DNA of 64,000 nucleotides from positions 121,705 through 185,704 of the IMG/VR virus record IMGVR_UViG_3300018962_000001; one strand, given 5' to 3'. The notes below the pieces were generated by a model, which was not told the origin of the DNA, searched no databases, and saw only the letters and a program-made list of their open reading frames with translations. Origin of the DNA: a virus. Position 1 is the stretch's first letter, and each line of letters opens with the position of its first letter. Shown here in pieces: positions 34,001 to 40,090 of the stretch. The position numbers were made by a program, and so were the translations under genes.

Positions 34001-35694
34001 ATCTGCATCAATGATTCGGCACTGATCCTCCCCGTTTGATTGATGGAGTCGATCGCCTGCGCGACCAGTTGCGTGATCCCCGGATCTCCATTGGTGCCCA
34101 CGGAGATGCGAATCGCTTCCTCAGCACTAATTTTGCCCGCCGTAACCAGCGCCGTCAGCCGATCTTGAACCTCCTCGGCGATCGTCGTCAGTGCGCCAAA
34201 GTCCGAATCGTCCCACTCAAGATAGGCCCGGAGGACCGGACTAAACCACGTGTCAATGGTCGAGAGCGGCCCTTCTCGCGGCGGCGAGAAACCACGCAAG
34301 AACGCTTCGATCCGGCTAGTGATTGCCAGGATTGCCATCTCGACGTAGCTACTGGCTCCTGCTAACATGCCATCGGCGAAGGCTGCAATGCTGTTCACAC
34401 CGCCAAGGAACAGTTCACGCGACAGGTTCTGAATCAGGCGAAGAATGAGTCCACTTAATCCCAGCAGGAGATTCGTAATCTGGGTGGCAGCCGTGCCGAA
34501 ATCGCCGCTAAACAGGGAGATCAAGGCTCCCCGGAGCGGCGCGAGCGCGGCCAGCACCTGCGCTGCAAACTGGCCGTATCCTCCCACGACCCGATCCACA
34601 AAGGCCAGCGCTGGGGCGGTTGCCTGGCTGAATCCGGTTGCCATTGCCTGAACCGTGCTGATAGCGAGGCGCATGCCTGCGGCAATGCCCTGCCCCAGCG
34701 TGGCGGCGGCGGCGAATAACGCCGGGTCTTTCAGTAAATTTTCGAGGCCAACCAACTGCTCTTTGATGACATCAAAGATTGGTGCTCCGAACACGCTGCG
34801 CAGCATGAACCAGCGGTCAGAAATATTCGACAGAATACCGTCCATCGATCGGGCGGCAAGTTGGGCGGCACCGCCGAACTTCTCGGCAAGAATCTCGTTG
34901 AGGGCGGTGAGCGCCTGATCCGCCGTGCCGAGATACGTTCCCTGCGCATCGAACTTGAGTCCCTTCATCTCAAGATCGGAGCGAGTCGCAATCGCAAGCT
35001 CTCGGAGGCGGCGGAAGGCATCGCCGAAGTCACCCGTTCCAACACGAGCAATCGCGAAGGTGACTTGTTCCAATTGGCTGCTTAAATCACGGATCGCCGG
35101 ACGAGTGACGACCGCTGCGTTGGCGACGTTGAGGAGAAATTCTTGCGTGCGCGCGCCAGCAACCTGGAGTTGCCGATCCGCTTCCACCAGCGCGGGCAGA
35201 TCAAACGGGGTTTGCACATTAATCGCCTGCAATTCGGCAAGGCGACTTCGGGCGCGCGCGAGCATCTGCGCTGTCGTATCGCCTTCCTGTCGCAGCAGGG
35301 TCATGTAGGAGATGATGCTGTTTTCGAGTTGCTGGTTGGGACCAACCAGCCCGGAGAGTGCTGCCGAGGCAATCCGGCCTAACTCACGGAATCCAAAGGT
35401 CAACGCGCCCACGCGCGTGATCAGGCCGACCATCCCCCCGCCTAAGACGTTGATCGACGATGACAATCCTGACGAGGTTTGCTGGGCACGGACGAACGTG
35501 TCGCGAAGCACGGAAGCCAGGGTTCGGGCTGACGCGGTAAGTGAACTCATGGATCGCGTGCTCGTCTGCGTGTTGACGTTAAACCCCTGGAGCTGTGATC
35601 CAAGCGCTTGAAGATTTGACCCGATGGCGCGGAGGGCGTTCAGCGCCGACTGGGCATTGCCCGTAAAATTTAAGAGAACCTGAATTTGATTCAC
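28051..35694 (-). CDS. tape measure protein with C-terminal M23 peptidase and lytic transglycosylase (SLT) domains
   Basis: Long helical, coiled-coil and hydrophobic repeat protein; HEGIDI...YYAHL...HLHYQI (M23); YESGWNPRSINLWDSN...SRGLAQTIPQTF (SLT); GTG start after AAGGAGG. Confidence 0.9.
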   Translation of the reverse strand: MNQIQVLLNFTGNAQSALNALRAIGSNLQALGSQLQGFNVNTQTSTRSMSSLTASARTLASVLRDTFVRAQQTSSGLSSSINVLGGGMVGLITRVGALTFGFRELGRIASAALSGLVGPNQQLENSIISYMTLLRQEGDTTAQMLARARSRLAELQAINVQTPFDLPALVEADRQLQVAGARTQEFLLNVANAAVVTRPAIRDLSSQLEQVTFAIARVGTGDFGDAFRRLRELAIATRSDLEMKGLKFDAQGTYLGTADQALTALNEILAEKFGGAAQLAARSMDGILSNISDRWFMLRSVFGAPIFDVIKEQLVGLENLLKDPALFAAAATLGQGIAAGMRLAISTVQAMATGFSQATAPALAFVDRVVGGYGQFAAQVLAALAPLRGALISLFSGDFGTAATQITNLLLGLSGLILRLIQNLSRELFLGGVNSIAAFADGMLAGASSYVEMAILAITSRIEAFLRGFSPPREGPLSTIDTWFSPVLRAYLEWDDSDFGALTTIAEEVQDRLTALVTAGKISAEEAIRISVGTNGDPGITQLVAQAIDSINQTGRISAESLMQIESRLGEQNRDIFLRIQERLNQAVLTQQIDEVQAKLRALDDPAARRRLQEATRSAERALRNARTFTQQRAARDQLAMLEAQEQAQDDQKTQLQQQLEILKQQQQVVADRLAGFAAADRLQERELRFMEQVLQIQRQINEDRKLGLLPGMTPGEREAVLEANRRAKAQRDYNFHIADTAGKLAILRGELANVEHGSEEYYKILAQIYDLEHRLADERESGTKKEEDRLKRLADAQWDYQYAIADDATRQQMLRDRIAAVGEESEEGYRLRTQLAQLQAAAEEKSRKEAEALAEAQRRNALETATAAEKTAILEQRLSELTPGTLEYLEAERELNQARREATEEQERQRKALLDYQLAIADTPGKIALLNEELERTTDPAERYRIMEQIANLQRQQAEDAARDAAKVGTAQEKYNLELEDTNGQIAILREKLAGLEPGSKEYFDTLRQIQVLEERRARLQEEATGKAAKAMDQQIAAQANLEKATGDYDGAIAKLRERQSHFAEGSKEWLNIEAQIERLQAQRDRSIASSGIKAENAYERQIKAQARLLTDQGRYNEALELLMGLRSRYAEGSQEYSEIEQMILNIQEKAQKAADQAARGQQSTFGDATQAITQLTDNITTGLAQGQQAWQSFSTTIDTAKERIDLARNAVVQFVTALFGMTAPDIPLPPMPAGGEARVDWESEFGGLGQLPDEFANLRATMQGVRAEIQPFFAFLQTNGGTILSVVAGIGTAFAVFRVGGAIHLGIQGVTTYLGPLAPALRGILNPFQLLIHPVNTVTGLFTALGTRFPVLAAVGSRLGPVFSAIWRALNPLTMLTNPVSNLLGLFRTGPAIFSALAVAINPVTLAIGAIALVIGLLTVAWLKNWGNIQGRVAEFVQYWNTTVTPTWSRFIAFLQPLFHDFQRAVGAVGLAFGRLWANLQTAFQVLSPLVTIFFNTLRSLMPILGGIAAVLVTVGTILGTTFLYVLGFIINLLSGVLPGVIVGLGGIIEVFLGVIQLIATVITGVVRIVAGIIYGFYTGDWQPLWQAVGDFVQGIIDSVVSIFTGAVTTVIGLAVGLWEGVKNAFYQLWVDLVGHSIIPDMVNGIVRWFQNLWDWGLAKIQGLADAMLQTIRWMVGTWTPGGGGLLGLLATLVDTALTNIERWIGAYQQGGMLGLIRTLADDYLAAIRWMVGTYASGQNGVLGWLYWLVNEGLDALIAWVGSDSAAGSMLGTIQRLANGFFRLIGELVGRYASGGGGVLGLFWGLINDTSRTVKQWIGLSDTSGDSLIGQVAQLVVNLPNLIRNNLVGTYTVGGPGVLGLFANLVEGGKTAMRDFVGTWDDRGNGVLNGGYRAWKGMSDRISEIKEAILAPFVGAANEIGTIMKKMANTAIGPADGSSGLNAAIKGFEFFVNKFRDAINWIAEKLGAAAPLPDTFNLPTIPQYARGTRRGYHPGGPAIVGEKGPEIVMLPRGSTVLPHQETARLRRRGLLPGNYPAYELGIGDAIGDVINWISQGAGWVLDRGLSAVGFESFDFAGDAFAGVGTAIFGKVKEWALALVEGLLRAFEDAQVGTDVYDAAEFMVGSREIVSWWGDARPDTTGRHEGIDILADEGTIIRALESGVVSYQGWNGFGGNYIQIRGQSGREHYYAHLVDPANFRAGQQIERGYDIGNVGHTPYRDGEMVDHLHYQISDKRGNWVDPKLELAAFLRELRGVTQDTPDPRGGEYWPGTPGPARSWISEALAGAAVTRDWLQGLSILGKYESGWNPRSINLWDSNFRAGYPSRGLAQTIPQTFNANKRASARAYTGDLGYANGRDLGNPGDIYDPIENLIAAINYIKRRYGHIRDLPGVQSVMRGGGWVGYATGGVIREPVTGIGAHTGTNYLLGEAGPEVVVPVDRLRERLARLRAAMEDQLVALTQELEHGLLDRSLGGGAATFDRFRAQTAAPALAAVATRLNLPPITYAPTYQIEGVNYTLDQIARMIDARQEEAWAGFLRDLRAAGYI

Positions 35695-35706
35695 GGTTGT
35701 CCCTCC

Positions 35707-35735
35707 TTGCCGAAGGGACGAACGTGATCTACAGT
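35707..35735 (+). promoter_or_regulatory. putative promoter of the stand-alone pentamer-tract RNA
   Basis: TTGCCG-17 nt-TACAGT, placing the predicted start (~35742) just before the tract. Confidence 0.5.
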
Positions 35736-35746
35736 GCGGTGAACGC

Positions 35747-35826
35747 GGCCTGGATCGGCCTGAGACGGCATCGACGGGCAAGGCACGGTTGGGCTATCCG
35801 TGGCTAGGTATGGTTGGGCGTGGCGC
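35747..35826 (+). ncRNA. stand-alone GG(Y)NN pentamer tract (candidate guide RNA)
   Basis: 16 in-phase pentamers: ggcct ggatc ggcct gagac ggcat cgacg ggcaa ggcac ggttg ggcta tccgt ggcta ggtat ggttg ggcgt ggcgc. Confidence 0.65.
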
Positions 35827-35854
35827 AGCACCTCACATGTGTGAGGTGCTGTTT
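35826..35854 (+). terminator. intrinsic terminator ending the stand-alone tract
   Basis: CAGCACCTCAC-ATGT-GTGAGGTGCTG-TTT. Confidence 0.65.
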
Positions 35855-35984
35855 GATTCTTGGGATGCCAACGGTGCCCCATCCGAGCCTCGCACGATAC
35901 GGATCATGTGTCGGATGGGCGAGCACGGGGGAATGGTGGCCCATATAGGAGAAGTCGGGGCAGATGCGCGGACTTCTGCCCCGT

Positions 35985-36013
35985 AGTATAGCAAAGACCA
36001 GCGGCGTCGTCTA
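35985..36013 (-). promoter_or_regulatory. putative promoter for the tape measure/tail operon
   Basis: Minus strand TAGACG-17 nt-TATACT with extended -10 TG; followed by a CGGGGCAGA/TCTGCCCCG hairpin. Confidence 0.5.
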
Positions 36014-36202
36014 GGATGGGTCGGTGGGGGACTCCCACGGGAAGGGAATCCCATTGGCGAGAAAATACTTCCGCCAAAACTCGGTGTCGAAGGGATGGCG
36101 ATCCGGCGGCGGCGGCGTGAGATGGCGCGTCTTAATGGCTGCCGCGATTGCCACCAGCGAACGGTAGATCACGGCCCAGAACAAGCGATCGGCGTTCTTC
36201 AT
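36011..36202 (-). CDS. small hypothetical protein (MKNADRLFW...)
   Basis: AAAGGAGG RBS; 63 aa. Confidence 0.6.
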   Translation of the reverse strand: MKNADRLFWAVIYRSLVAIAAAIKTRHLTPPPPDRHPFDTEFWRKYFLANGIPFPWESPTDPS

Positions 36203-36212
36203 TGTTCCTCCT

Positions 36213-37220
36213 TTAAGGAGCAGTGCGCTCCGCTGCTTCGATGGTGTGAATCCCGGTGAGAAGTTGATAATACGCCAAGCTTCCAGGCTGAAATAAGAGC
36301 AGATAGCCTTGGAGCAACTCTTTCCGCGTGGCACGCGCGGGTTCTAAGGTGATGCGTGCTCGAATCAGCGCCATCCGTTCGTCATCCGTCAACTGCGGAT
36401 CGGCCAGCCGATCTTCAAGCAGCAGGATCTTCTGGACGCGCGCAGCGGCAGCGAGGGCCATTGTGGTCGGCGAGATGATCGAGTCGGAGTCGTCCTCCGG
36501 TGGCGTATAAGGCCGGGGGGCAGCTAATCGGGTGGTTGGCCCCGTCGCCGGACGCAGACGTTGATAAATCTCGACCCACGACAGGCCCAACCGCCGGAGT
36601 GCGAGGATTTCCGCACGCCGGTTCGGCAGATTCTGATAGGCCACCGACTGACGCAGATCCTCCCAGAGCGGCTGAATCTCGCTGAACCACTGCTGACGGC
36701 GGAGAACATCCTGTGGCCCCGGATCAAGCACTCGCACCTCCTCCGGCCAGAAAGCAATCGCCTGATCGATCTGGAGATTAATGAGTCCCAGTGGCACGCC
36801 CGCAGCATCGCACTCAACACCATCTTGATCGATCCACGGCTTGTGCGGTGATCGCCGGATGAGATGGGGTTTCGTTCCCTGGATGACCGGGAAGATCGCC
36901 GGATCGAGTGGGGGGACAAAGGCCGCATGCGACGTGGGATCATCCACGCGGGCCAGATCTGGGATCGTGTGCCCACACCCGGAACAAAACTTCGCACCGG
37001 GTTCGATTCCACGATACCCACAGCGGGTACACTGATTTGCTGCGCGCGCGCGCTGTAGGCACTGATTTGCGAGCAATGTCCGGGACCGAAACTCTGCCAG
37101 ATCAGATCGATAGAGCAGGGTGGTCCGGTAGGCTGCATACAAGGTCGCCATCAGGACTCCTACCTGAACTCCCTCACTCGAAAGATGGAATAGGAGATCC
37201 ACGAACCAATCATTCATCAC
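36213..37220 (-). CDS. protein with N-terminal hydrophobic segment and zinc ribbon
   Basis: CTRCG...GAKFCSGCG; coupled to the upstream HTH gene. Confidence 0.6.
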   Translation of the reverse strand: MMNDWFVDLLFHLSSEGVQVGVLMATLYAAYRTTLLYRSDLAEFRSRTLLANQCLQRARAANQCTRCGYRGIEPGAKFCSGCGHTIPDLARVDDPTSHAAFVPPLDPAIFPVIQGTKPHLIRRSPHKPWIDQDGVECDAAGVPLGLINLQIDQAIAFWPEEVRVLDPGPQDVLRRQQWFSEIQPLWEDLRQSVAYQNLPNRRAEILALRRLGLSWVEIYQRLRPATGPTTRLAAPRPYTPPEDDSDSIISPTTMALAAAARVQKILLLEDRLADPQLTDDERMALIRARITLEPARATRKELLQGYLLLFQPGSLAYYQLLTGIHTIEAAERTAP

Positions 37221-37432
37221 TCCTCCCGTTCCTCCGGCGGCGGCGGCGCGAACAATGCCAGCAACGGCACACCGAGCGCGGCAGCCATTTTGTCAAGCGA
37301 TCCGATCGTTAACGTCTCGACGTGGCGATTATGCCAGGCTTTGCGAACCGTCCCCACCCCCAGATCGGCCCGTCGTGCCAGCTTCGAGATATTTAACGCC
37401 TGGGCGGTGGCGATAACAGCTACTTGAAACAT
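37217..37432 (-). CDS. XRE/Cro-like HTH transcriptional regulator
   Basis: LNISKLARRADLGVGTVRKAW...IGSLDKMAAALGVPLLALF; AAGGAGG RBS. Confidence 0.85.
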   Translation of the reverse strand: MFQVAVIATAQALNISKLARRADLGVGTVRKAWHNRHVETLTIGSLDKMAAALGVPLLALFAPPPPEEREE

Positions 37433-37472
37433 TCGATCCTCCTTCCTCGTGTGGAGCGCGCATCATTGTGCA

Positions 37473-37558
37473 TTGACAGACCGCATATCTATGTTATACT
37501 GTCATTATAATGTATAGTATATAGAGTATAGCATACAAAACCTATGCTACATTATACT
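37473..37558 (+). promoter_or_regulatory. AT-rich control region between divergent genes, with promoter(s) and inverted repeats
   Basis: TTGACA-16 nt-TATACT (37473-37500); second TATACT at 37553; inverted repeats TATAATGTA/TACATTATA and TAGCATA/TATGCTA. Confidence 0.65.
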
Positions 37559-37605
37559 CCCACTCCCGGCAGAATGCTAGACATTCGACAGATGAATTCG
37601 GACAT

Positions 37606-38006
37606 GGTTGGGTGTGGATTGGCTAGGCTAGGAGAGGCACGGTGAGGTCTGGCACGGATGACTCTGCACTGAGTCCAATCCCTTCGGGGTATCTGGGTAT
37701 GGCATGGGAACGGTTGGGTCCGGTAAGGATCGGCTGGGAGCGGCAAGGTGTGGCAAGGTCGGGCTGGGCCGGGCAACGCAGGGCACGGATGGCGGTGTAT
37801 TCCGCCACCATTCCCCACCAGGGGAATACGAGGATGGCTGGGCGCGGGCATGGCGAGGCGTGGCAAGTCGAGGCTGGGCCGCGCTAGGTGCGGCAAGGCA
37901 CGGATGATCGTGGATTCGATCACCATCCCTCACACGAGGGTTATTTGGCTCGGATCGGTCAGGATTGGCTAGGTCAGGTGGGGCTGGGTGAGGCTTGGTT
38001 TGGTAC
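37606..38006 (+). repeat. array 1: four GG(Y)NN pentamer tracts separated by hairpin spacers (candidate guide-RNA array)
   Basis: Tracts at 37606-37655, 37696-37786, 37836-37901 and 37947-38006 with GG every 5 nt; the first three end GGCAC-GGAT-5-bp hairpin-(A)CCA followed by a second hairpin. Confidence 0.85.
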
Positions 38007-38016
38007 AAGGAGCAGT

Positions 38017-38655
38017 ATGATGGCATCCAACATGATTCAAGCGACGGTTGAGATCCAGGGAACGAAGCCACTGTTGTGGCACGCCTTTACGCCCGACAGC
38101 ATTCCGGCGGACGGCAAGAAGGAAAAGACCGGGGTGGCGGGTAACGATCCCCAGGAATGGCGGCGATCCTTCCTGGCGGATCACGAAGGCCGCTTGTTTG
38201 TGAACCCGGAATACATCTTCGGCTGCCTGCGCGATGGCGCGCGACACACCAAAAAAGGCCGTGGATCGATTATGTCGAATGTGGCGGCAACGCTTCAGAT
38301 CGTGGACGAGCGGATCTACACCGATCGCTATTTCCCACGCAACGGCGCGACTGGCCCCTTTGATCCGGCATCGGCGGATCGCCCGCCGATCGAGATCACC
38401 GAGCCGGTTTATCTCGACGTGCGATCGGTGAAGAACCCGTCCACGAAAGGTCGGAACGTCCGCTACCGGGTGGCGGCGAGTCCAGGGTGGCGGGCGAGCT
38501 TTACGATTCTGTGGGACAAAACCATTGTCAGCCGCACCGAGATGGAGGCGGTCATTACTGATGCGGGCCGACTCGTCGGGCTGGGTGATGGCCGATCGAT
38601 CGGCTTTGGTCGATTCATGGTGGTGCCAGGGTCCATCACGTTTACCGAGGTCTAG
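38017..38655 (+). CDS. solo RAMP / Cas7-like RNA-binding protein (Vipr-like)
   Basis: N-terminal strand ATVEIQGTKPLLWH, FVNPEYIFGCLRDGA helix, WRASFTILWD strand and C-terminal glycine-rich loop AGRLVGLGDGRSIGFGRF, all typical of RAMP/Cas7; AAGGAG RBS; no other cas genes in the window. Confidence 0.75.
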   Translation: MMASNMIQATVEIQGTKPLLWHAFTPDSIPADGKKEKTGVAGNDPQEWRRSFLADHEGRLFVNPEYIFGCLRDGARHTKKGRGSIMSNVAATLQIVDERIYTDRYFPRNGATGPFDPASADRPPIEITEPVYLDVRSVKNPSTKGRNVRYRVAASPGWRASFTILWDKTIVSRTEMEAVITDAGRLVGLGDGRSIGFGRFMVVPGSITFTEV

Positions 38656-38665
38656 AGTCTTTCGA

Positions 38666-38724
38666 GGCGAGGCATGGTGAGGTGAGGTATGGGGTGGTTG
38701 GCGAGGTACGGCCTGGCAAGGAGT
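38666..38724 (+). repeat. GG(Y)NN pentamer tract between the RAMP and HNH genes
   Basis: ggcga ggcat ggtga ggtga ggtat ggggt ggtt ggcga ggtac ggcct ggcaa ggagt, running into the HNH RBS. Confidence 0.75.
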
Positions 38725-38730
38725 TTGAAC

Positions 38731-39048
38731 ATGGGCATGAAACGACAACCTCCGAAGATCTGGGAAGGAACCCGCAAACGAATATTCGAACGCGATCGGG
38801 GGATCTGCCAATCTCCCCTGGCTCCACCCCTGTGTCAAGGGAAACGCGGCGAGTTAACGCTTGCCACGGCGCATATCGACCACCGGCGAAGCGGTCGGTT
38901 TGGCACGAATGCGGATAGCAACCTCCGGGTGCTCTGCCGCGCGTGCCACGTCCTCCGCGACGATCCGCGCCACCGAGGCATGATCGGCGGAGCCTTGCGC
39001 GACGGGATCATCCCTCCCCATTGGCGGGAGCTAACCTGGGGAGAGTAG
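38731..39048 (+). CDS. HNH endonuclease
   Basis: W...RKRIFERDRGICQ...C...AHIDHRRS...GTNADSNLRVLCRACH; AAGGAG RBS 7 nt upstream. Confidence 0.85.
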   Translation: MGMKRQPPKIWEGTRKRIFERDRGICQSPLAPPLCQGKRGELTLATAHIDHRRSGRFGTNADSNLRVLCRACHVLRDDPRHRGMIGGALRDGIIPPHWRELTWGE

Positions 39049-39270
39049 ATGGGTCGTCCAAGGCACAGAACGGGTGCCGTGCGCCAGCTGCCGTGGCGCA
39101 GAGTCGTCACGGCAGCACGTGATGGCGGAATCATGGGGGCGGTGCTGGGAGGGGTGTTCTTTGGCCCTTCTGGCGCGCTGGTGACCAGCTTAGTAGGAGC
39201 GGTGGCAGCGGCGGCGGTTCGCTGGTATCGAAGCGTCAAGGCGAGAGGTCGCATGGGAAGGCATGGATGA
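39049..39270 (+). CDS. small membrane protein with glycine-zipper-like helices
   Basis: GGIMGAVLGGVFFGPSGALVTSLVGAVAAAAVRW; starts immediately after the HNH stop. Confidence 0.45.
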   Translation: MGRPRHRTGAVRQLPWRRVVTAARDGGIMGAVLGGVFFGPSGALVTSLVGAVAAAAVRWYRSVKARGRMGRHG

Positions 39271-39626
39271 TCGTGGATCGATCCCACTTCTCGGTTGGGC
39301 AAGCGAGGGTCTGGCAAGGACAGGCAAGGCTTGGCTCGGCAGGGTCGGGTTCGGCTGGGCAAGGATACTGGTGTTTCCAGTACCATCGATTGGGTGTGGC
39401 GGGGCGGTGGTAGGGTGGGGCTTGGCTTGGTCCGGCACGGCAGGGATGATGGTGTCTCCATTCCACCTCATGGTCGGGCGAGGAGGGGCGAGGCAGGGCT
39501 AGGCGGGGCAAGGTGAGGCCCGGCAAGGTTCGGCACCGATCCTCGTGTCATCGAGGCCACCACGGGGTATGCCGAGGCGTGGTAAGGTGAGGCTAGGCTG
39601 CGGTGAGGTCCGGCGAGACGGGGAAC
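39240..39626 (+). repeat. array 2: GG(Y)NN pentamer tracts separated by hairpin spacers (candidate guide-RNA array)
   Basis: Tracts at 39240-39264 (degenerate), 39293-39362, 39393-39443, 39472-39536 and 39566-39626; spacers (G/C)GAT-5-bp stem-TG..T loop-stem-(A)CCA at 39265, 39363, 39444 and 39537. Confidence 0.85.
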
Positions 39627-39654
39627 AGGACGGGTGCTGGTCACCCGTCCTGTT
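39624..39654. terminator. 13-bp hairpin between converging transcripts (array 2 and tail chaperone)
   Basis: AACAGGACGGGTG-CTGGT-CACCCGTCCTGTT. Confidence 0.65.
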
Positions 39655-40090
39655 GATTCTCCGGTGCCTGGTCGGCGAACTCATCAACCTTGTTGGCACG
39701 TTTGTAGGCTTGCCAGAAGGCTGACTGCATCGGCGGCGGCGGCGGCGGGGCGAATGGATCTTGATAGACCTTCTCAAACGGCGGCAGCGCCTGCGGTTTC
39801 TTGCCACCGAACGCGGGTCCAAGGACGCGGGCCAGGGCGGTTTCGAGGGCCATAATCTGACTCATTTGCTGGTCCCAGCGATTCCGCGCGACCTGCTGGT
39901 ACTCGCGATGGAGTCGCCGCCACCGCCAGCCCAGCACCTCCTCCAGGGGCAAATGCCGGGTTGCCACGATCTCGGTCACCATGTCGTCGATCAGGGTGCC
40001 AATGGCTCCTATGATGTCGAAGGCGAGTTGACCACCGTTGCGCCAGCTGGTGGTGGAGTCTTGGCCGGTTGTTGATTGCGCTTGCCCCAC
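39641..40090 (-). CDS. tail assembly chaperone frameshift extension (gpT-like)
   Basis: Overlaps the chaperone gene in the -1 frame and is open from the slippery site at 40120-40126. Confidence 0.65.
   Translation of the reverse strand: MGQAQSTTGQDSTTSWRNGGQLAFDIIGAIGTLIDDMVTEIVATRHLPLEEVLGWRWRRLHREYQQVARNRWDQQMSQIMALETALARVLGPAFGGKKPQALPPFEKVYQDPFAPPPPPPMQSAFWQAYKRANKVDEFADQAPENQQDG

Follow-up and report, generated by a model that had tools for sequence, protein, structure and literature searches.

The 64,000-nucleotide window analysed here (positions 121,705 to 185,704 of IMG/VR virus record IMGVR_UViG_3300018962_000001; all coordinates are positions in this window unless stated otherwise) carries a cassette of repetitive guide tracts, a vipr gene, an HNH endonuclease gene and seven small hairpins, six of which are followed by CCA. 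The cassette is identified as a VIPR system in a 205-kb phage because one gene product matches Vipr, the tracts consist of GGY/NN units and an HNH accessory gene is present. VIPR is a recently described relative of CRISPR in which, according to the available text of its description, the NN pairs of a guide read DNA with a one-base skip and Vipr coats the GGY units (10.64898/2026.04.26.720920). The hairpins form structured spacers among the guide tracts, and how they might serve to release the guides is our subject.

The vipr product matches the SUSP1 Vipr structure (PDB 36pp_D) with an E-value of 8.4e-6 in a single-sequence search, and a profile (A1) run against solved structures has SUSP1 Vipr as its sole match (E 8.1e-10, positions 8–193 of 198, G-loop included). 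The product has 2031 relatives, and its structure model scores 84.5 on the predicted local distance difference test (pLDDT). Directly downstream, the HNH gene reaches 21.5 bits against PF01844 (cut-off 21.4) and matches PHROGs HNH families at E 1e-8; it is likely the vap accessory gene and points, we infer, to a nuclease type of VIPR. The guide tracts, ten of them full, comprise 122 units (98 GGY, 11 GGR and 13 other), and the rest of the phage genome holds no further GGY/NN tract. The virus record is 204,685 bases long and has major head and tail protein genes near the cassette, which lies on the strand opposite to the phage structural genes; two DNA runs of one study give an identical sequence of the stretch, with 0 variants. 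When the guides were searched for targets under the one-base-skip rule, neither the phage's own genome nor the fetched loci, 3.1 Mb with both strands included, gave a match above shuffled guides. A divergent helix-turn-helix (HTH) gene is a possible regulator of the cassette.

The seven hairpins (H1–H7) have the stems, loops and start coordinates that a sequence-only reading of this DNA had given them, and each is preceded, as it had noted, by a GGCAN pentamer (GGCAC four times, and GGCAT, GGCAA and GGCAG). All 35 stem positions are paired, 34 by Watson–Crick pairs and one by G–U, so the earlier observation that stems differ while pairing is kept is borne out, with six distinct stems rather than seven because H3 (37906) and H4 (39269) are identical. 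When the 5′ arm of one copy is set against the 3′ arm of another, full 5/5 pairing results in 2 of the 42 combinations, both of them H3/H4. Across the 204,685-base genome the pattern of SGAT, a 5-bp stem and a TG..T loop occurs seven times on the plus strand, as H1–H7, and once on the minus strand, there without CCA. The two bases 5′ of the stem (−2/−1) are AU in 7/7, and the first stem base (+1) is G in 5/7. The proposed (A)CCA-like end is present in six, as RCCA in H2, H3 and H5 and as CCA joined to the stem without an intervening base in H4, H6 and H7, and is absent from H1, which has CAA; likewise, the second hairpin ascribed to array 1 spacers is solid in H2 and H3 and amounts to only 3 bp in H1. 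In the minimum-energy fold of each element alone, the named stem is present in H1–H5 and absent in H6 and H7.

That the hairpin "ends each tract", as had been proposed, does not hold: it follows T1, T2, T3, T6, T7 and T8, six of the ten full tracts, and H4 heads array 2 after a degenerate stretch. The tracts without a hairpin either lead into ribosome-binding sites (T4, T5) or end in long terminal hairpins (T0, T9). Because the element lies between two guides or heads an array, but never follows the last guide, it separates guides rather than marking the end of each tract. The second hairpin of H3 with its U-rich run (37927–37946) is also a weak predicted terminator, which may thin read-through into vipr.

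Features of the cassette and its surroundings. H, hairpin; T, guide tract; R1, covariance model built from hairpin spacers of other genomes.
Feature	Positions	Strand	Evidence or remark
T0, stand-alone GGY/NN guide tract, 16 units, without hairpin-CCA	35747..35826	+	12-bp terminator-like hairpin 35825–35852 at its end
Cro/C1-type HTH gene, divergent	37217..37432	−	PF13443, E 1.6e-5
Sigma-70-type promoter ahead of array 1	37473..37500	+	consensus match 11/12
T1 guide tract, 11 units	37601..37655	+	
H1: GGAT, 5-bp stem 37660–37675, CAA, then weak 3-bp UUCG hairpin	37656..37678	+	not found by R1
T2 guide tract, 16 in-phase units from 37707, two more before phase slip	37696..37786	+	
H2: GGAT, stem 37791–37806, ACCA, then 7-bp second hairpin	37787..37827	+	R1, 34.6 bits
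T3 guide tract, 11 in-phase units from 37847	37832..37901	+	
H3: GGAT, stem 37906–37921, ACCA, then 5-bp second hairpin and U-rich tail	37902..37940	+	R1, 29.5 bits
T4 guide tract, 12 units, without hairpin, leads into vipr ribosome-binding site	37947..38006	+	
vipr gene, predicted RAMP-family guide-binding protein, 212 amino acids	38017..38655	+	match to SUSP1 Vipr
T5 guide tract between vipr and HNH gene, without hairpin, leads into ribosome-binding site	38666..38724	+	
HNH endonuclease gene	38731..39048	+	PF01844, PHROGs
Degenerate five-unit stretch ahead of H4	39240..39264	+	sequence
H4, head of array 2: GGAT, stem 39269–39283, CCA	39265..39286	+	R1 weak, 14.7 bits
T6 guide tract, 14 units	39293..39362	+	
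H5: GGAT, stem 39367–39381, ACCA	39363..39385	+	R1, 29.2 bits
T7 guide tract, about 10 units, one phase slip	39393..39443	+	
H6: GGAT, stem 39448–39462, outer G–U pair, CCA	39444..39465	+	R1 weak, 15.1 bits
T8 guide tract, 13 units	39472..39536	+	
H7: CGAT, stem 39541–39556, CCA, then second CCA	39537..39559	+	not found by R1
T9, last guide tract, 11 units, 3′ part degenerate, without hairpin-CCA	39566..39620	+	
Terminal hairpin, strong, terminator-like, without long U run	39625..39653	+	−22 kcal/mol, z −5.0; unlisted in terminator prediction

The short hairpin recurs in other fetched loci (L numbers; L001–L120 together with the window are the close loci), namely in L043 (two copies), L052, L063 (four) and L078, whose Vipr is 57–59% identical to that of the window. 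In these eight spacers of four other genomes, 39 of 40 cells are paired, four of the five pairs have changed on both sides, and the covariation exceeds that of all 500 shuffles and all slid controls. Together with the pairing in the window, this identifies the hairpin, on comparative sequence grounds, as a real RNA element under selection. The sequence-only reading had concluded as much about RNA structure, and its interpretation stands in that part; it had not recognised the system as VIPR. When the covariance model R1, whose only input was the eight non-window spacers, is run on the window, H2, H3 and H5 come out on top; H6 and H4 are weak matches (E about 0.3), and H1 and H7 go undetected. 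Over 100 loci it returns its training spacers and one further element, L052:5128, a head-of-array copy that ends in GGUA in place of ACCA. In this short class the loop-closing pair is G–C in 14/15 and the loop starts with U in 15/15. Two further structural candidates were rejected: a pseudoknot between loop and downstream sequence (judged by eye, H2 could form six pairs, H3 only a weak version, and H1 and the relatives none at all; it would also compete with the second hairpin) and a kink-turn, for which the bulged strand has no tandem GA.

Wider searches returned few or no copies. An IMG/VR scan for the short hairpin gave 119 matches, none within a tract and one fully paired, and another such scan gave none; a phylum-wide search matched in 7 of 401 genomes, with no inter-tract spacers among them, and an annotated phage collection gave no match. 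The IMG/VR scan for GGCANGGAT-N5-TG returned 22 stretches representing 18 distinct tract ends, of which 0 have the stem, so that GGCAN-GGAT is a general end of VIPR tracts. By these searches the short hairpin is limited to a clade and not general to VIPR. The Vipr tree (40 rows, leaving out 62 of 102 loci, those without an internal spacer) is too unresolved for ordering the kinds of spacer, and only L052 and L078 group with support.

Other kinds of element occupy the same slot in related loci. The close loci have 78 distinct inter-tract spacers, 20 of them hammerhead-like by motif, and Rfam Hammerhead_II is confirmed in two of 20 scanned loci (six copies in L045, one in L026). Hammerheads stand at array heads as well (7 of 129 tract heads), a position also taken by H4 and L052:5128, and the loci that use them have a Vipr 52–64% identical to that of the window. 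We infer that the slot is a processing slot.

The internal spacers that are neither hammerhead-like nor from the window number 52, and in nine of them (6 of 36 loci) a stem is followed after zero or one nucleotide by CCA, compared with a mean of 1.1 and a maximum of 4 in 200 shuffles; the L027 match in this count is doubtful, its stem lying outside its best fold. No triplet follows such stems more often than CCA (9, next 7), and the same combination is found in 1 of 120 terminal tails. With the pattern of a hairpin, one nucleotide and CYA, 22 of the 191 non-hammerhead internal spacers are matched; their stems are 4–6 bp long in 14, 9 bp in one and 12–13 bp in seven, in a table whose L078 row took a wrong stem. 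Scanning instead for CCA six nucleotides ahead of a tract gave 127 stretches and 69 distinct non-tract sites, with stems at offsets 0 and 1 in six and two, no better than other offsets.

The longer stems have a geometry of their own. L012, L013 and L021 have unrelated stems and share C(−1), G(+1), a 12-bp helix, a 6-nucleotide NUGAYN loop and an end of G-CCA or G-CUA. L083:4985 and the head element of L109 also have 12 bp, end in G-CUG and are followed by a second UUCG hairpin like that of array 1. At the distant Vipr locus L298 (E 4.7e-9), five 12–13-bp stems end in RCCA, four of them with T-loop-like loops. A more complete form, an acceptor stem with a T-arm, is folded in L119, L027 and L095, and is formed in L319 and L270 too; in L025 it is seen by eye only and the fold disagrees. 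Rfam gives for L119 only a sub-threshold mascRNA match (E 1.6), and over 15 loci with tRNA-like or multi-hairpin spacers a single match, which is unrelated.

Further kinds of spacer were seen alongside these. A recurring multi-hairpin family (GCUG..CAGC, a long middle stem, GGUG..CACC) is found in L276, L289, L323, L359, L361, L374, L378, L264 and L303; Rfam, run on eight of the nine, matches none of them, and the family could be a ribozyme or another tRNA mimic. L252 and L253 have very long arrays of 10–12 tracts with 2–7 extra bases between tracts, probably of the staggered kind. The spacers of L001:4700, L048:818, L069:1319 and L070 (minus strand) are short and barely structured, keep RCCA or RCUA and close with ACNN where the following tract starts; none of the models considered here accounts for them.

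We propose, with a probability of roughly 45%, that the hairpins are shrunken tRNA mimics, each a T-arm-like 5-bp hairpin with NCCA, which host RNase P would cut so as to release unit guides. The array would be transcribed as one long RNA from the promoter at 37473. Host RNase P would pair RCC with its GGU and cleave immediately 5′ of the stem, after GGAU, giving an upstream guide with GGAU at its end and a next guide that has the hairpin, or both hairpins, at its start. Further cleavage or trimming on the CCA side may remove the spacer entirely. Once the guides are free, Vipr would cover their GGY units, and DNA would be read by the NN pairs with the one-base skip. The available text on RNase P describes an enzyme that measures the 12-bp helix of acceptor plus T stem, pairs the 3′ RCC with GGU and favours A(−2)U(−1); its further substrates include transfer-messenger RNA (tmRNA), signal recognition particle (SRP) RNA and phage C4 RNA (PMC10731613). 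Small model hairpins with RCCA are reported to be substrates in vitro, U(−1) making cleavage nearly 500-fold faster than G(−1) does (PMC12710915).

The 12-bp spacer class fits this substrate geometry closely, and the class of the window looks like the same mimic minus the 7-bp acceptor; from this fit and the T-arm-like short class, a series of tRNA mimics handed to host RNase P is suggested. In 28 of the 30 CCA-ending phage tRNAs the T-arm has the G–C loop-closing pair and loop-initial U of the short class, and the H2 stem is identical to the T-stem of a phage tRNA-Gly. The phage has 39 tRNA genes (99684–129065 of its genome, G000), 30 of them called with an encoded CCA, but no RNase P RNA of type A, the one type searched for, was found in that genome, and it therefore likely relies on the RNase P of its host. 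The earlier suggestion of a host RNase that reads the CCA end, in a locus lacking Cas6, gains comparative support from the hammerheads and clear tRNA mimics in the same slot of related loci; the absence of Cas6 agrees with a genome-wide search for the single family PF10040, which gave no match (other Cas6 families were not searched).

A number of observations weigh against cleavage by RNase P. The stems of the window are 5 bp long rather than 12 bp with a T-loop, which is the optimum, though model hairpins do without it; with a stem of 5 bp the loop cannot reach the T-loop site of RNase P, which would leave the conservation of the loop unexplained. Strict RCCA is found in 3 of the 7 window hairpins, and H1 (CAA), L052:5128 (GGUA) and L083:4985 and the L109 head element (GCUG in both) have no CYA at all. 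GAT ahead of the stem is weak support, since it belongs to the general tract end. In predicted folds the GG that closes the tract is able to pair with the CC, which slows RNase P; base −1 can pair with base 73 in 18 of 22 cases, slowing it as well, yet 17 of the 30 phage tRNAs allow a −1/73 pair too. Among all 191 non-hammerhead internal spacers CCA ranks fourth (15, after GCG and GGC with 17 each and GGT with 16), 15 of 295 terminal tails also pass the test of hairpin, one nucleotide and CYA, and the count of stem-CYA at array heads, 14 of 129, stands against a shuffle maximum of 12. A scan for minihelix spacers gave one true match in six, on the L298 contig. L298, L281, L319, L270 and L360 are a biased sample because the scan that found them had demanded CCA near a tract, and the fetched DNA of L319, L270 and L360 has no Vipr match. 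In SUSP1, moreover, the tail is described as remaining attached to the guide at its 3′ end (10.64898/2026.04.26.720920; 10.64898/2026.04.26.720927).

This last point leads to a strong rival, in which the hairpin would be kept on the upstream guide as a 3′ cap that ends at CCA, the counterpart of the SUSP1 pseudoknot tail. The CC would pair with the final GG of the tract and so stop both the Vipr filament and exonucleases, and the 3′ end would come to lie at or near CCA once the RNA had been cut downstream and trimmed. In SUSP1, two tails out of four start, much like the short class, with GGAT and a 5-bp stem (GGTAG/CTACC and GGCAG/CTGCC), and within the pseudoknot described in the accessible text the last GG, in our own reading of the pairing, pairs with CC. 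The corresponding GG:CC pairing is predicted in the folds of H2–H5, and the CUA variants retain it as G–U. Hammerhead cuts and terminal hairpins would likewise leave a hairpin directly after the guide, so a 3′ hairpin could be a common rule, and both ends of the hairpin may be cut. Set against this, no full guide lies upstream of H4 or L052:5128, H7 and L016 retain CCA though the GG lies 7 nucleotides before the stem, the window loops lack a CC and the length that the SUSP1 pseudoknot would need, and a cap needs neither exactly 12 bp nor a T-loop, as seen in L012, L013, L021 and L298. For all its strength, we regard a retained tail as rather doubtful.

Cleavage by the system's own proteins seems improbable to us. 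In it, Vipr or the HNH protein would act like Cas6, cutting where the hairpin stem ends on its 3′ side and leaving a leader of 9–11 nucleotides on the next guide; the conserved loop agrees with this, as do the four single-hairpin spacers of array 2, in which the stem ends 9–11 nucleotides before the next GG. Cas6 hairpins are read by sequence, unlike the window stems, which vary freely, and loci with a Vipr 52–64% identical use hammerheads instead. Vipr is a RAMP protein, as Cas6 is (10.64898/2026.04.26.720920), but the accessible text of the VIPR papers reports no cutting of RNA by Vipr. It is also unlikely that no cut takes place and that the hairpins are insulators within one long multi-guide RNA, ending the Vipr filament and resetting the five-base register. 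The short, barely structured spacers of the clade (e.g. in L001) would suit such a role; self-cleaving ribozymes in the same slot of sister loci would not, CCA is not needed for it, and published VIPR arrays are described, in the text available, as yielding unit RNAs of about 100 nucleotides (10.64898/2026.04.26.720920). Least of all do we expect the spacer to be a small self-cleaving ribozyme or to act as DNA: the slot does hold ribozymes elsewhere, but Rfam gives three matches over 35500–39800, the best at E 0.57 and none a ribozyme, the shortest spacers are single hairpins of about 30 nucleotides, and tolerated G–U pairs fit an RNA element rather than a DNA one.

Beyond the window, and a little more tentatively than for the hairpins themselves, we suggest that some VIPR phages may have evolved natural arrays of tRNA mimics and guides, from acceptor-plus-T-arm mimics through 12-bp minihelices to the 5-bp T-arm with CCA, matured by host RNase P and interchangeable with hammerheads.

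Several other observations concern the surroundings of the arrays. T0 and its terminator-like hairpin (35747–35852) overlap the start region of an opposite-strand tape-measure-like gene, 1.8 kb from vipr, and the intergenic stretch behind them (35863–35990) has several short perfect or near-perfect hairpins. Just after the promoter, beside the divergent HTH gene, lies an A+T-rich, partly palindromic stretch (37505–37560), a possible operator. T4 and T5 abut ribosome-binding sites (37947–38016 and 38666–38730), an arrangement seen in many relatives, and by binding at these sites Vipr could exert control over its own translation. An open reading frame of 73 amino acids (39049–39270), placed between the HNH gene and array 2, has weak glycine-zipper matches and degenerate GGY units in its first and last codons.

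VIPR, its tails and its hammerhead arrays are already published, and the release of guides from VIPR arrays is described, in the text available, for hammerhead arrays (with inferred cut sites) and staggered arrays alone (10.64898/2026.04.26.720920). No tRNA-like or RNase P spacers were found in the VIPR literature as searched, that is, outside figures and most supplements (10.64898/2026.04.26.720920,.720927, 10.64898/2026.10.15.759431, 10.64898/2026.10.21.760802); the searched text of 10.64898/2026.04.26.720920 mentions neither RNase nor CCA, and "tRNA" is absent from its supplement, while its fig. S17 or data S4 may show such loci. The processing route is thus likely to be undescribed for VIPR. 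The finding adds a third kind of spacer and names a candidate host enzyme, with cut sites predicted to the base. If the proposal is right, the window hairpin would be among the smallest natural substrates of RNase P, and host tRNA processing would provide maturation of guides without Cas6 in a RAMP-guide lineage proposed to precede CRISPR. Engineered tRNA-guide cassettes would then have a counterpart in nature, and a spacer of about 30 nucleotides would become available for multiplexing VIPR guides. Should the hairpin instead be a retained tail, it would still define the minimal 3′ tail of VIPR guides.

The closest known systems are the VIPR of SUSP1 and of a Pseudomonas fulva prophage (type II), which share with the window, as far as their available descriptions go, a vipr gene with one accessory gene in a phage, tracts of 9–16 GGY/NN units and, 3′ of most tracts, a structured element that starts with GGAT and a 5-bp stem (10.64898/2026.04.26.720920,.720927, 10.64898/2026.10.15.759431). 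The window differs in having a plain hairpin with NCCA and no pseudoknot (loops of 5–6 nucleotides without a pairing CC), an HNH nuclease as accessory gene and ten tracts. Its element follows 6 of the 10 full tracts, is absent after the last tracts and is present at an array head, whereas the SUSP1 tail follows 4/4 tracts. The published hammerhead-interspersed and staggered arrays have, like the window, many guides per transcript and a spacer slot for processing (10.64898/2026.04.26.720920, available text); unlike the hammerhead arrays, the window has no ribozyme core such as the CUGANGA and GAAA with three stems of a hammerhead (no Rfam ribozyme in 35500–39800), and a host enzyme would take its place.

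Outside VIPR, the non-tRNA substrates of RNase P (pre-tmRNA, pre-SRP RNA, phage C4 RNA and model hairpins) combine, in the texts available, a stem with RCCA, U(−1) and mostly G(+1) (PMC10731613, PMC12710915). The window has U(−1) in all seven hairpins, G(+1) in five and RCCA in three, and the 12-bp relatives match tmRNA and C4 in geometry; the window hairpins differ in their 5–6-bp stems, their arrangement in arrays and the guide RNAs that putative cleavage would release. In the engineered t-element cassettes for CRISPR RNAs (crRNAs) of Haloferax, tRNA-like elements flank the guide and, as described in the accessible text, RNase P and RNase Z free it without Cas6 (PMC6546412); those are man-made, while the arrays of the window would be natural and phage-borne. 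Finally, CRISPR repeats cut by Cas6 also alternate a hairpin spacer with variable guides beside a RAMP protein, but in the window the hairpin sequence is not conserved (six stems), the guides are pentamer tracts and PF10040 Cas6 was not found.

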